Notes under the pieces: model-generated
Database searches by the model: none
Told to the model about the DNA's origin: nothing
Seen by the model: only the letters and a program-made list of their open reading frames with translations
Made by a program: the position numbers and the translations under genes
Shown: piece after piece, positions 2,375 through 16,366 of the stretch
Layout: every line of letters begins with the position of its first letter
Position numbering within the stretch: position 1 is the first letter of the stretch
DNA from: Chthonomonadaceae bacterium
Lineage (GTDB): Bacteria; Armatimonadota; Chthonomonadetes; Chthonomonadales; Chthonomonadaceae
NCBI GenBank assembly: GCA_035650735.1
Contig: DASRGZ010000127.1
Location: 1-34,116 of the forward strand
Reading direction: 5' to 3'
DNA length: 34,116 nt

Positions 2375-2697
2375 TCAGACCAGATGCAGGGAGCGCTCCT
2401 GCGGCGGCGGGTAGGGCAGGATGATCGCCGGGGCTTTACGCATCGGCTCTGGGGACGCGCCGCCAGCTGACGGCGCAGCGCGGCCATTTCCGCCCGCACA
2501 GCCTTCAGCTCAGCCCGCAGGGCGCGCACTTCGGCCAGCAGTTCCCCGACCTTCAGGCGCTCTATCTCCTGTACCTCGGCGTCGCCGAGCAGTCGCGCGG
2601 CAAAGCCCACGAGACGCCGCTGGCAGGCTTTCACCAGCCGCCCGAACGCCTGCGCATCGCCCTCTGCGATCCGTTGGATTAAGGCGTCCTCCTCCAT
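2375..2697 (-). pseudogene. ECF sigma factor N-terminal fragment fused to a coiled-coil (anti-sigma-like) tail, frameshifted
   Basis: MEEDALIQRIAEGDAQAFGRLVKACQRRLVGFAARLLGDAE resembles the start of ECF region 2; it switches to ELLAEVRALRAELKAVRAEMAALRRQL, and another frame ends ...PAIILPYPPPQERSLHLV*. Confidence 0.6.
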
Positions 2698-2765
2698 GCG
2701 CCGTCCCTCCCTCATAAAGAGAAACGCAGGATGGGGGAGCGTGATTCACAGAATTTAGGGAAAAG

Positions 2766-2814
2766 GAGGAGGTAATTTGCGCCGTAAGAGGAGGTAATTT
2801 GCGCCGTAAGAGGA
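2766..2814 (+). repeat. 22-bp tandem duplication (2.2 copies)
   Basis: gaggaggtaatttgcgccgtaa at 2766-2787 and 2788-2809, then gagga. Confidence 0.9.
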
Positions 2815-2875
2815 CCGCTGACCGTTCTGGCGAGCCATCACGGCATGAACTGGTCGCTTTGCTGGTTCGAATCGC

Positions 2876-2904
2876 TTGCGCTTTCCGCGTTAACCTGTTA
2901 TAAT
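2876..2904 (+). promoter_or_regulatory. Sigma70-type promoter for the kdsC operon
   Basis: TTGCGC-17 bp-TATAAT with extended -10 TG. Confidence 0.7.
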
Positions 2905-2928
2905 GGGTTCAGAAACCGAGAATTCAGG

Positions 2929-3513
2929 ATGGGCAGTCTGGAAGCGCAAGGGGCCGATATCTGCGCCAAGCTGGCGCGCATCCGCCTGCTGGCAATGGAT
3001 GTGGATGGCGTGCTCACCGATGGAACCATCGGCTATGATGGGCAGGGAGCCCAGCAGAAGCGATTTCACGTCGCCGATGGCCTGGGGCTTGTGGTGCTGG
3101 GGCAGGAAGGGATCGCGGTCGCCTGGGTTACGGGACGCAGGGATGCTGCCGTCGAGCGCCGCGCCGCCGAACTGTCCGTGCCCTATCTACTGCAAGGCGT
3201 GCGGGATAAGGGCCGTGCCTTGCGGCAGTTGGCTGCCCAATTGGAGTTGGCGCCTGAGGAGATCGCCTATATCGGCGATGACTGGAACGATCTGACGGCC
3301 TTTGCCGTGGCCGGTGTGCGCCTGGCAGTCGCCAACGCCGCGGAAGAGGTCAAGGCGCAGGCCGATCTGGTCACCACCCGCAGCGGCGGCCTGGGGGCCG
3401 TCCGTGAGGTGTGCGAATCGATCCTCGAGGCGCATGGCCGGCGTGGCGATGCCGTCGCGGCCTATGTCGCCGCGCTCTGTCAGGGAGGAGACGTGCCGCC
3501 GTCCGGGCAATAG
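2929..3513 (+). CDS. kdsC: KDO 8-phosphate phosphatase (HAD IIIA, KdsC family)
   Basis: MDVDGVLTDG, FHVADGLG, YIGDDWND, GGLGAVRE motifs. Confidence 0.88.
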   Translation: MGSLEAQGADICAKLARIRLLAMDVDGVLTDGTIGYDGQGAQQKRFHVADGLGLVVLGQEGIAVAWVTGRRDAAVERRAAELSVPYLLQGVRDKGRALRQLAAQLELAPEEIAYIGDDWNDLTAFAVAGVRLAVANAAEEVKAQADLVTTRSGGLGAVREVCESILEAHGRRGDAVAAYVAALCQGGDVPPSGQ

Positions 3514-3546
3514 ACCTCCTGATAAGCGCCCATGGACAACGCAAAG

Positions 3547-3702
3547 CGATTCCCCGCAGGTGCGGAGGTGAACCGCACGACGCTGGAGTGGTTTCTGTGC
3601 CTGGAGCCGACCTATTCCCCACGCGCGTGGGGGTGAACCGAGGATCGCCACGGTCGGCATGCCGGATCATCCGGCTTTCCCCACACACGTGGGGGTGAAC
3701 CG
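3547..3702 (+). CRISPR. Orphan mini CRISPR array with type I-E-like 29-bp repeats (3 repeats, spacers 36 and 33 bp)
   Basis: CGATTCCCCGCAGGTGCGGAGGTGAACCG (3547-3575), CTATTCCCCACGCGCGTGGGGGTGAACCG (3612-3640), GCTTTCCCCACACACGTGGGGGTGAACCG (3674-3702). Confidence 0.8.
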
Positions 3703-3716
3703 CGGAGGCGAGATAG

Positions 3717-4103
3717 ATGTCCCCTGTTGATTACATGTCTTGTCCGCATTGCCAGGTGAATAATCTGCCGGATCGCTCCGTTTGCTGGCGATGCGGCAGG
3801 GCGTTGCCTGTCTTCCTTGGCCCGGATGGGCATCGGCGTTCTAACGCCGGCTCCCCAGAGAGCAAATTGAGCCGCGACGAGATTGAGGCCCTGCTGGCGC
3901 AGGCGCAGGTCGTGGATGTCGAGAGCGCCAAAAAAGGCACGCCTCCGACGGGTGGACCGCCCACGAAAGCCGAACCGCTCAAGAAGCTCCGGGAGTTGCT
4001 GAAGAAAAAACCGTCCAATCCCTCTCAGGAGGACGCTGCCAGCTCCAAAGATGTGGCCAAAGTGTGGCTGGGGCGCGGGAAGCGGCGTCAGCCGGAACTT
4101 TAA
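3717..4103 (+). CDS. Hypothetical protein with N-terminal zinc ribbon
   Basis: CPHC...CWRC; GGAGG RBS; co-oriented within the operon. Confidence 0.7.
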   Translation: MSPVDYMSCPHCQVNNLPDRSVCWRCGRALPVFLGPDGHRRSNAGSPESKLSRDEIEALLAQAQVVDVESAKKGTPPTGGPPTKAEPLKKLRELLKKKPSNPSQEDAASSKDVAKVWLGRGKRRQPEL

Positions 4104-4124
4104 ACCCCGTGGCCGGGAGGAAGC

Positions 4125-5009
4125 ATGGCTGTCGGCAATCGGGGACGACTGACCCTGCTGCATACCAACGACTTTCATAACCGTTTGACTGAGGCGCAGG
4201 CGATCCGTCTGCGCCTGCTCCATGACTCCCTGGCCCCGGAATGCTTGCTGCTGGATGCCGGCGACGCCATCCGCGCCGGAAACATCACCTATCACCCGCG
4301 CGGCGAGCCGATCTTGCATCGGATGACCCAAATCGGGTACGATGCCATGACCGTCGGCAACCGGGAGTTCTATTTTACACGTGTTGGGTTTCATTGCAAG
4401 CTGGCGCGCGCCGGCTTTCCGGCCCTGTGCGCCAATGTTCGCCCCGCGCGCACGCCGCAGGGGGATACCACCTGCGATGCGACTGGAGTCGCCCTGGACA
4501 GGCGCGCAGAGGCGGGCGCTCCGGAAGAACCGGAGAGCAAATTGAGCCGCGCGGAAAGTTCGCGCGCTCACGGCGGTGCGGAAACCCTTCCGGTTCGCCC
4601 CTACATTGTGCGCCAGACGCCGGCGGGATGGCGCGTCGTCGTCTTCGGGCTGACCGTTCCCATGATTACCGAGCGGATGCTGGCGCGCAGGATCTCCGCC
4701 TATGTCTTTGAGGACCCGCTGGCGGCGGCGGCGCGGCTGGTGCCGGCACTGCGCGGCCAATATGCCCCCGACCTGTTGATCGCGCTCACGCACATCGGCC
4801 TGGCCCGAGATCGGCAGCTCGCCGAAGCGGTGCCCGGCATTGACCTGATCCTCGGGGGACATACACATGCGGCGCTGGATCAGGGCGAATGGGTCGGCGG
4901 GACGCTGCTGGCGCAGGCCGGCGCGTTCGGGCGCTTTCTGGGGCGCGTGGAAGCCTGGAAAGAGCCGGAGGGCCGCCTGCGCCTGAGCGCTTCTCTGGAA
5001 TCGTTATGA
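4125..5009 (+). CDS. Metallophosphoesterase, 5'-nucleotidase/CpdB N-terminal-like
   Basis: LHTNDFH, LLDAGD, GNREF, LTHIG, ILGGHTH motifs; no 5'-nucleotidase C-terminal domain. Confidence 0.85.
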   Translation: MAVGNRGRLTLLHTNDFHNRLTEAQAIRLRLLHDSLAPECLLLDAGDAIRAGNITYHPRGEPILHRMTQIGYDAMTVGNREFYFTRVGFHCKLARAGFPALCANVRPARTPQGDTTCDATGVALDRRAEAGAPEEPESKLSRAESSRAHGGAETLPVRPYIVRQTPAGWRVVVFGLTVPMITERMLARRISAYVFEDPLAAAARLVPALRGQYAPDLLIALTHIGLARDRQLAEAVPGIDLILGGHTHAALDQGEWVGGTLLAQAGAFGRFLGRVEAWKEPEGRLRLSASLESL

Positions 5010-15740: not shown

Positions 15741-16148
15741 CTACCCCAGGTCATACCGATTGCCGCCCTCGTCCTCTTCCTGCGACTTGAAAATGCGCTT
15801 GACGAAGACGATCAGTTCCATCGGGTTGAATGGCTTGGTCAGGTAGCAATCCACGCCGCTCTGCCAGCCCCGGAACACGTCGGCATCCTGGGCCTTGGCC
15901 GTCAGCATGATTACTGGCAGATCGCGGGTGTTGGGATCTTTGCGCAAATGCTGCAGCACCTCAAAGCCGTCCATGTAGGGCATCATCACGTCCAGTACCA
16001 CCAGATCGGGATGCTCCGCAGCGACCTTCTCCAGCGCTTCCTTGCCGTCAAAGGCCGTCACGACCTGGTAGCCGGCGCGCTCCAGGTTGACCTGCACAAG
16101 CCGGACAATATGTCGTTCGTCATCCACCGCTAGGATCTTCTTAGGCAT
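15741..16148 (-). CDS. Single-domain response regulator (receiver only)
   Basis: KILAVDDE, PDLVVLDVMMP, IMLTA, YLTKPF; no output domain. Confidence 0.92.
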   Translation of the reverse strand: MPKKILAVDDERHIVRLVQVNLERAGYQVVTAFDGKEALEKVAAEHPDLVVLDVMMPYMDGFEVLQHLRKDPNTRDLPVIMLTAKAQDADVFRGWQSGVDCYLTKPFNPMELIVFVKRIFKSQEEDEGGNRYDLG

Positions 16149-16186: not shown

Positions 16187-16189
16187 AGA

Positions 16190-16366
16190 TGGTTCCCCCC
16201 GCGCGTGCGGGGAATATTAGGGGGTTAGGGTTCTAGGGTTCTGTAGGGTGCGAGGGTTCTAAGGTGCTAGGATGCTGCTTCATCCCCGCGCGTGGGGGAA
16301 CAGCCCAGAACCTTAGAACCCTCTAGAACCCTAACCACGGTTCAACCCCGCGGGTGCGGGGAATAG
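16190..16366 (-). CRISPR. Degenerate type I-E-like mini array with repeat-derived, mutually complementary spacers
   Basis: Minus strand: CTATTCCCCGCACCCGCGGGGTTGAACCG (16366-16338), CTGTTCCCCCACGCGCGGGGATGAAGCA (16303-16276), ATATTCCCCGCACGCGCGGGGGGAACCA (16217-16190); intervals 34 and 58 bp. Confidence 0.6.

Follow-up and report, generated by a model that had tools for sequence, protein, structure and literature searches.

Why should three repeats of a type I-E CRISPR system lie between a kdsC gene and the ribosome-binding site of the gene behind it, in a genome assembly that encodes no type I-E protein? The locus belongs to a 34,116-nucleotide (nt) stretch of DNA from a soil bacterium of the Chthonomonadaceae, here called the window, which is contig C127 of the metagenome-assembled genome (MAG) G000; positions given without a contig name are those of the window. 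An earlier note, written from these letters alone, had called the element an orphan type I-E mini-array inside an operon, and had proposed that a Cas6e acting in trans cuts the transcript into regulatory guides. We favour, with somewhat more confidence than doubt, an isolated, degenerate I-E mini-array left behind by promiscuous CRISPR adaptation, set in a genome-wide context that is more surprising than the array itself.

The type of the repeat was established by comparison with other genomes. Among the 41 genomes searched (G000 and 40 relatives), 12 contain it, and six of these 12 (G002, G005, G012, G034, G035 and G039) carry it in long arrays whose identical repeats recur every 61 nt. Such an array is adjoined by a Cas6e gene in G012 and G034, the latter with a full cas3-cse1-cse2-cas7-cas5-cas6e-cas1-cas2 operon. 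In addition, the exact 29-mer of the middle window repeat, R2, recurs in an Anaerolineae MAG as part of an ordinary I-E array, and the plasmid matches to the R2 part are themselves I-E arrays, for example in Thermus and Streptomyces. Since the same repeat stands in I-E arrays of relatives, of the Anaerolineae MAG and of plasmids, its membership of the I-E family is solid, and the earlier note had typed it correctly. The known features of I-E repeats are also present, namely a length of 28-29 nt, a stem-loop rich in GC and a 3' handle of 8 nt with ACCG at its end. Mini-arrays of this family persist in three relatives in which Cas6e was not found. Three repeats lie between a promoter-like TTGACA-17-TATCCT site and the rpoB start in G022 (C4:960546-960700; five contigs, 97% complete), two stand on contig C210 of the congener G001, the last ending 1 nt ahead of the start of a NIF3-like gene, and in G018 an AT-rich leader and four identical repeats precede folD.

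In the window, sequence inspection and a repeat finder agree on three in-register direct repeats (3550-3579, 3615-3644 and 3677-3706), delimited as the 29-nt repeats R1, R2 and R3 in Table 1; as the earlier note had it, they are non-identical copies with a common 3' end. They start 65 and 62 nt apart; the I-E unit is about 61 nt, composed of a 29-nt repeat and a 32-33-nt spacer. All three end in GTGAACCG, the 8-nt handle. R1 and R2 differ at seven positions and R2 and R3 at five, so that no recent acquisition took place at this array. The stems of R2 and R3 are perfect over 6 bp (CCCCAC/GTGGGG), and that of R1 (CCCCGC/GCGGAG) has one C-A mismatch. The exchange of G-C for A-T at stem position 5 between R1 and R2/R3 is indeed compensatory; it says little by itself, because both stem variants occur as working repeats in relatives, and palindromes can also be corrected through templated repair. 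The R2 and R3 hairpins form in the minimum-energy RNA fold and the canonical R1 hairpin does not; the 227-nt array region as a whole is no more stable than its shuffles (z = -1.1). A degenerate repeat pattern allowing up to three mismatches finds four matches in the window as against none in 100 dinucleotide shuffles, the fourth marking a further array, on the minus strand at 16338.

The flanks of the array are likewise as first described. The upstream open reading frame (ORF) scores above the cut-off of the KdsC subfamily, and its stop lies 33 GC-rich nt ahead of R1, with no AT-rich leader between them. The 14 nt from R3 to the ATG of ORF 3717-4103 read CGGAGGCGAGATAG and hold the GGAGG that had been pointed out. 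The genes on the two sides are co-directional. No promoter-like site is predicted within 2600-4300, and no terminator-like site between the KdsC and Zn-ribbon ORFs, the sole one found being within the Zn-ribbon ORF; the array lies in an operon-like string of genes. A Pfam scan of the 14 ORFs of the window gave no cas gene, and an Rfam search returned nothing but a chance microRNA match (E = 0.6).

We then consider the rest of the genome, a 6.52-Mb assembly of 224 contigs that is 97.6% complete. The Cas6e and Cas7e models (PF08798 and PF09344) have no match in it. The I-E loci of G034 and G012 supplied 69 ORFs as tblastn queries, all of 120 amino acids (aa) or more, which leaves out the 111-aa Cas2 of G034; the search retrieved only a Cas3 match of 28-30% identity to contig C93, translations of array repeats and one unrelated gene. 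The I-E operons of the relatives were found by the same means, and the I-E proteins of the lineage are therefore detectable by these searches. The only cas locus of the genome is C93:2502-21337, which lies on a different contig from the window array and is of a different subtype. It combines type I-B-like genes (Cas6, Cas7/DevR, Cas5, Cas3 and Cas4) with type III genes (Cas10, Csm2, RAMP and Csx1-like) and one Cas1, and includes the sole Cas1 and the Cas3 of G000. The locus adjoins an 80-repeat array of a different 29-nt repeat, none of whose spacers matches the G000 genome. In this assembly, the window array is thus an orphan, as had been supposed.

The spacers gave no target. Neither window spacer has a second match in G000 beyond chance words of 15-18 nt, spread over many contigs (E at least 0.026), and spacer 1 has none longer than 17 nt; the spacers of the sister loci behave in the same way, except for a 19-nt 'spacer' on C69. 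In phage and plasmid collections the window spacers have no match beyond chance, the plasmid matches falling on the repeat, and a single 24-mer scan showed the exact 24-mer 3641-3664 to be absent from viral contigs. Viruses of this phylum, the Armatimonadota, are poorly sampled. Since no spacer matches a host promoter, the suggestion of a CreA-type guide is left without support.

Nor is the array conserved at its site. In the congener G001, KdsC is followed by a 225-nt spacer, the Zn-ribbon ORF and a phosphoesterase, an order identical to that in the window, with 72-79% coding identity, and neither nhmmer nor alignment finds a repeat in that spacer. The intergenic alignment of the two genomes shows weak, unconvincing colinearity, the common part being only the ribosome-binding stretch GGAGGCGATAGA, which precedes the orthologous Zn-ribbon ORF in the repeat-free congener as well. 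Homologues of this ORF come after the KdsC gene in the relatives L022, L024 and L030. Conversely, the NIF3 mini-array of G001 and the folD array of G018 have no counterpart at the G000 orthologues. With no repeats common to the orthologous sites compared, the loci turn over faster than species diverge. A 1-kb stretch of the window shows 0 differences in contigs from runs of three studies, runs that may include the source sample, and contigs from four DNA runs hold no variant of the array. Deep, short metagenome contigs matching R2/R3 were considered as an unbinned I-E array of this organism and dropped; R2 is widespread and canonical, and such contigs can therefore stem from unrelated organisms.

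The window array is one of many. The repeat family occupies 17 intergenic loci of G000 (by pattern, regular expression, nhmmer and inspection), with about 30 copies and one to five per locus. No two copies are identical, save three on C109, where three identical variant repeats are set apart by 32-nt spacers. Spacers of exactly 32 nt are also found on C114, C126 (three) and C147, where the unit is 61 nt; such spacers and periods are the mark of an I-E integrase and not of a repetitive extragenic palindromic (REP) element. At 15 of the 17 loci, a same-strand ORF with high GC content at third codon positions (GC3) begins 0-130 nt past the last repeat. The start codon is within 16 nt at six of them (C32, 0 nt; C105, 3 nt; C94, 10 nt; C115 and the window array, 14 nt; C98, 16 nt), and the two exceptions, C42 and C219, lie at convergent 3' ends. 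Pfam, run on three of the downstream genes, identified a response regulator, a PilT-like ATPase and one gene without family. Fifteen loci were tested for flanking target duplications, and none was found, none exceeding the 95th percentile of shuffles; insertion of the repeats as part of a repeat-containing spacer was rejected on this ground for these 15 loci. Conservation per position over 24 copies is biased by how the copies were found and serves for description only. Sister arrays C127b, C109 and C19 contain self-derived, low-complexity 'spacers', which argues that no I-E interference is policing those arrays.

A second kind of trace is far more numerous. G000 shows a sharp excess of unique 29-31-nt direct duplications with a 65-69-nt period. 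Among repeats of 24-45 nt, 72 pairs fall into the 60-69 period bin and 26 into the 70-79 bin, as compared with at most nine in any other 10-nt bin up to 500. After four rows were dropped (a pair from the C109 array, an internal tandem on C84 and, on C23, a tandem repeat in coding sequence), 86 loci were left, in which a direct duplication of 26-40 nt surrounds an insert of 32-49 nt (peak at 30 nt, period 67-68 nt). Duplicated sequences and inserts are mostly unique, and 19 of the 86 footprints lie inside a long high-GC3 ORF, as compared with 753 of 1,000 random segments. Insert lengths of 36-38 nt fit the spacers of the C93 array, of which 34 are 36 nt, 24 are 37 nt and 14 are 38 nt long. On the whole, the footprints look like large-scale off-target CRISPR spacer integration, of the kind known as neo-CRISPR. 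Five of them have I-E geometry (28+33 or 29+32), several at palindromic or CTATTCC-like sites, and the exact 28-nt duplications with 33-nt inserts indicate that an I-E integrase was active recently in the lineage. Some 15 footprints have duplications of 35-39 nt with a period of 72-75 nt, which suggests a third integrase ruler.

Seven inserts copy another G000 site over their full length, six exactly and one at 35/36. The bases ahead of the seven protospacers are GCCG three times and CCCG, GGCC, AGCC and GGAC once each, and the two positions before the protospacer are C/G-only in 7/7; the GCCG-like bases are a possible protospacer-adjacent motif (PAM). Four of the seven inserts copy sites on the 43.5-kb contig C15 (2024-2055, 4215-4251, 17136-17172 and 32865-32903), which suggests that C15 is a chromosomal hot spot of spacer uptake. 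We rejected C15 as a mobile element, as 17 of its 20 scanned ORFs have Pfam matches, to ordinary cellular families save one DNA methylase, and no phage or plasmid hallmark is among these matches.

Taken together, the identity of the repeat family, its dispersal, the lack of I-E genes in the assembly and of targets for the spacers, the absence of the array in the congener and the rampant off-target integration all lead to the reading that we favour. The array most likely arose when the I-E spacer-integration machinery of the lineage acted away from its leader-linked array. It would now be a stranded and presumably inactive passenger in the kdsC/Zn-ribbon intergenic space, tolerated because its placement between genes does no harm. 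Its sense orientation and the lack of a promoter or terminator of its own make it probable that the kdsC transcript includes it; two CRISPR RNAs (crRNAs) and cutting of that transcript would be expected only if Cas6e/Cascade were supplied, and the assembly encodes none. Several observations weigh against this reading. Chief among them, a model of neutral relics does not predict the sense bias of 15/17 loci (one-sided binomial 0.0012); nor does it account for the route by which near-canonical repeats reached 17 separate intergenic sites, with no flanking target duplication at the 15 tested. All 12 differences among R1-R3 spare the 8-nt handle (about 0.02 if random), and the loop and the first three bases hold every difference between R2 and R3, a pattern to be expected under continued constraint by I-E proteins and not under free decay. 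The 28+33 footprints imply recent I-E integrase action though its genes are not in the assembly. Finally, the MAG is 97.6% complete in 224 contigs, and binning frequently loses Cas islands and arrays, which limits the absence of I-E genes to the assembly.

Some of the same observations would suit the mechanism of the earlier note, in which each of the three hairpins in the kdsC polycistron is cut by a Cas6e whose gene lies elsewhere, in unassembled sequence or on a mobile element, so that two guides and a handle-capped Zn-ribbon mRNA are released as a regulatory device. The perfect stems, canonical handles and hairpin folds of R2 and R3 point that way, as do a handle free of inter-repeat differences, the 15/17 loci in sense just ahead of genes, the want of a promoter or terminator parting the array from its neighbours, the recent I-E adaptation proteins that footprints on the I-E ruler with exact duplications reveal, and the incompleteness of the assembly. 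We nevertheless consider it unlikely. Neither Pfam nor tblastn with the I-E operons of relatives finds an I-E gene; mini-arrays persist in G022, G001 and G018, for which no Cas6e was found; the stem of R1 has a mismatch, and its hairpin does not form in the minimum-energy fold; and an active I-E effector should not tolerate the self-derived low-complexity spacers of the sister arrays. The deep R2-like metagenome contigs, which can come from unrelated organisms, do not help it. The cutting that was proposed is therefore unsupported by this 97.6%-complete genome, and the regulatory guides fare no better, with spacers that match no host, phage or plasmid sequence and a congener that keeps the gene pair without repeats. 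What the earlier note had named beforehand as counting against its regulatory idea, a genome without cas6e and a spread as ordinary REP elements among them, largely does so: the repeat is dispersed, over 17 loci, but as mini-arrays with unique spacers and not as identical REPs. A more far-reaching version, which we regard as doubtful, is that adaptation has spilled over the whole chromosome. Near-canonical I-E repeat units would have been planted or selected in sense in transcribed 5' untranslated regions and intercistronic gaps, host promoters would express these operon-embedded guide genes for an I-E effector acting in trans or intermittently, and the approximately 86 insertions would be a natural, unselected record of uptake, including self-spacers from one chromosomal hot spot.

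Two other explanations dispense with Cas6e. In one of them, the hairpin and its GGGGGTGA tail, a stretch which seems to resemble an extended Shine-Dalgarno sequence, judged by the 3' end of 16S rRNA, have been co-opted and kept in 5' untranslated regions and intercistronic spacers as an RNA element, which could stabilise as a stem-loop or give structure to the ribosome-binding region, much as REP hairpins act in operons. The sense bias of 15/17 would fit, as would the persistence of loci in genomes where Cas6e was not found and the position of the G022 repeats between a promoter-like site and the rpoB start. The last repeat is indeed 0-16 nt from the start codon at six G000 loci and 1 nt at G001:C210, but over all loci the distances range over 0-130 nt and 2/17 loci lie at convergent 3' ends. 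Moreover, the window gene has its own GGAGG, present too in the repeat-free congener; repeats are common to species at 0/3 of the orthologous sites compared (the window locus, NIF3 and folD); the 227-nt region folds no better than shuffles; and a 61-nt periodicity with unique 32-nt spacers marks the action of an integrase and not an RNA motif. Co-option is improbable on these grounds. The other explanation, to which we give very little credence, is an ordinary palindrome of the REP or MITE (miniature inverted-repeat transposable element) type, spread by a Y1 transposase of the RAYT (REP-associated tyrosine transposase) kind, on which spacer integrases occasionally seeded mini-arrays. The repeat is certainly dispersed, intergenic and palindromic, seven loci are single-copy, and the genome is rich in other dispersed hairpin families and has Y1 transposase genes. 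Yet chance likeness cannot explain near-identity to the I-E repeat at work in relatives and in an unrelated phylum, there are just about 30 copies, non-identical save the three on C109, and these stand in direct order with no inverted REPIN-type pairs. Of the three Y1 matches, the two better-scoring ones (both on C166) are flanked by other repeat families, with no I-E-like repeat around them. RAYT/REP mobilisation was accordingly rejected for these two genes, the third match, on C52, being left out.

Among known systems, orphan or isolated CRISPR arrays are the closest kind; the window array shares with them a recognisable subtype, here I-E, and the lack of cognate cas genes, both close by and anywhere in the assembly. 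A 2020 paper by Shmakov and colleagues in CRISPR J is said to be the primary account of them. The origins proposed for such arrays include transfer by mobile elements, loss of the cas operon and off-target spacer acquisition, according to the introduction of a 2026 preprint. The present case is unlike them in having 17 small loci of one to five repeats instead of one or few arrays, non-identical repeats within the locus and no leader, and a tight placement between housekeeping genes, with 15/17 oriented like the gene that follows. It is a variant in how many loci there are, in their tight sense placement in mRNA leaders and in the mass of off-target footprints that accompanies them. Set against the definition of an I-E array, the window array has the repeat family and lacks identical repeats, a leader and, in the assembly, cognate cas genes.

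Off-target integration by the I-E Cas1-Cas2 of Escherichia coli is reported to create neo-CRISPR loci, in work of Nivala, Shipman and Church from 2018. How common this is in nature is called unclear in a preprint that discusses that work. The 86 G000 loci with duplicated local sequence around a spacer-sized insert, five in I-E geometry, are of this kind. The window array is not simply one of them, because its repeats are near-canonical I-E repeats; they are not duplicated local sequence, and no target duplication was found to flank them. It resembles the regulatory CreA/CreTA mini-arrays and standalone repeats (Shmakov et al. 2023) in being short and degenerate, with two or three repeat-like units and a possible crRNA-like RNA. 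These elements are described as lying inside CRISPR-cas loci, as conserved between related loci and as having spacers partly complementary to promoters of cas or cargo genes. The window array shows none of the three features as so described: it is not in a cas locus, its spacers lack complementarity to host promoters or genes, and it is not conserved in the congener. With REP elements and bacterial interspersed mosaic elements (BIMEs) it shares a dispersed, GC-rich, hairpin-forming repeat in transcribed intergenic spacers. It differs from them in low copy number, in a 61-nt CRISPR periodicity with unique spacers and in the match to a working CRISPR repeat, and from REP/RAYT systems in having no link to the two Y1 transposases examined on C166.

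Orphan or isolated arrays are usually regarded as leftovers, of which a genome has a few, and off-target spacer integration has been shown mainly in E. coli with over-expressed Cas1-Cas2. A single wild genome with 17 repeat loci and 86 footprints, some of the latter with a PAM-like flank and spacers copied exactly from the genome itself, would show adaptation enzymes remodelling intergenic DNA at large scale, and would offer an unselected picture of what Cas1-Cas2 takes up. Whether CRISPR repeats located in mRNA leaders act on gene expression is a question that it would bring up as well. As a caution, a neat hairpin array beside a ribosome-binding site is not evidence of regulation.

Table 1. 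Positions of the window array and its neighbours, of the second window array and of related loci in G000
Feature	Position	Strand	Remarks
KdsC-family haloacid dehalogenase (HAD) phosphatase ORF, upstream	2845-3513	+	Pfam Hydrolase_3; NCBIfam TIGR01670, 138 bits against a cut-off of 107
Repeat R1	3547-3575	+	CGATTCCCCGCAGGTGCGGAGGTGAACCG; most degenerate copy, nhmmer E = 1.3e-4
Spacer 1	3576-3611	+	36 nt, unique
Repeat R2	3612-3640	+	CTATTCCCCACGCGCGTGGGGGTGAACCG; canonical I-E repeat sequence
Spacer 2	3641-3673	+	33 nt, unique
Repeat R3	3674-3702	+	GCTTTCCCCACACACGTGGGGGTGAACCG; loop ACAC; ends 14 nt short of the next start codon
GGAGG Shine-Dalgarno-like site of the downstream ORF	3704-3708	+	Sequence inspection
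Zn-ribbon-like ORF	3717-4103	+	128 aa; CPHC...CWRCG; without Pfam or NCBIfam family
Response-regulator ORF	15744-16148	-	Pfam Response_reg, 2e-30
Second I-E-like mini-array in the window	16189-16366	-	Three degenerate repeats: 16338-16366, 16277-16303 and 16189-16216
Ten loci with 2-5 copies	C19, C42, C69, C94, C109, C114, C126, C127 (twice), C147		
Seven single-copy loci	C32, C59, C96, C98, C105, C115, C219		
Example footprints	C10:5082-5175, C11:15898-15994, C15:24204-24301, C1:10060-10148, C65:114-202, C135:1248-1337		

The second array of the window lies downstream of a promoter-like TTGACA-17-TATACT site and 40 nt upstream of the response-regulator ORF, and its two 'spacers' are GGTTCT-rich and AGAACC-rich inverted arms. 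Its composite build is shared with C109:6185-6463 and C19:53100-53307. In each, GGTTCT-rich and AGAACC-rich inverted arms bracket an outer near-canonical I-E repeat together with an inner array, the latter made of a nearly full-length palindromic variant repeat, CTATTCCCCCACGCGCGGGGGGAACYAG; at the C19 locus the inner array is inverted. Another unusual arrangement is found at C69:3855-4010, where two I-E-like repeats just 48 nt apart stand ahead of a release-factor-2-like gene with a CTT TGA C frameshift-like site. There, the 19-nt 'spacer' has 16 nt of exact complementarity with a site lying about 70 nt downstream, and this pairing would place the second repeat in the loop of a larger hairpin.

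Some further repeats and pairings were seen around the window array and elsewhere in the genome. In the minimum-energy fold, the CCUCC at 3515-3519, just past the KdsC stop, pairs with the GGAGG at 3704-3708 across the entire array, which may be chance. Just ahead of the KdsC start, at 2766-2814, there is a perfect 22-nt tandem repeat of 2.2 copies, GAGGAGGTAATTTGCGCCGTAA. A dispersed intergenic hairpin family, in which TAGGGTTCTAAGG-like units form one arm and their complement the other, occupies at least 16 further G000 loci, for example C59:69172, C96:86610, C159:1469 and C186:1184, and other dispersed families of the genome have GGGAAGGGGGTGACCCG-like and TAGGGTGTAGGGG-like units.

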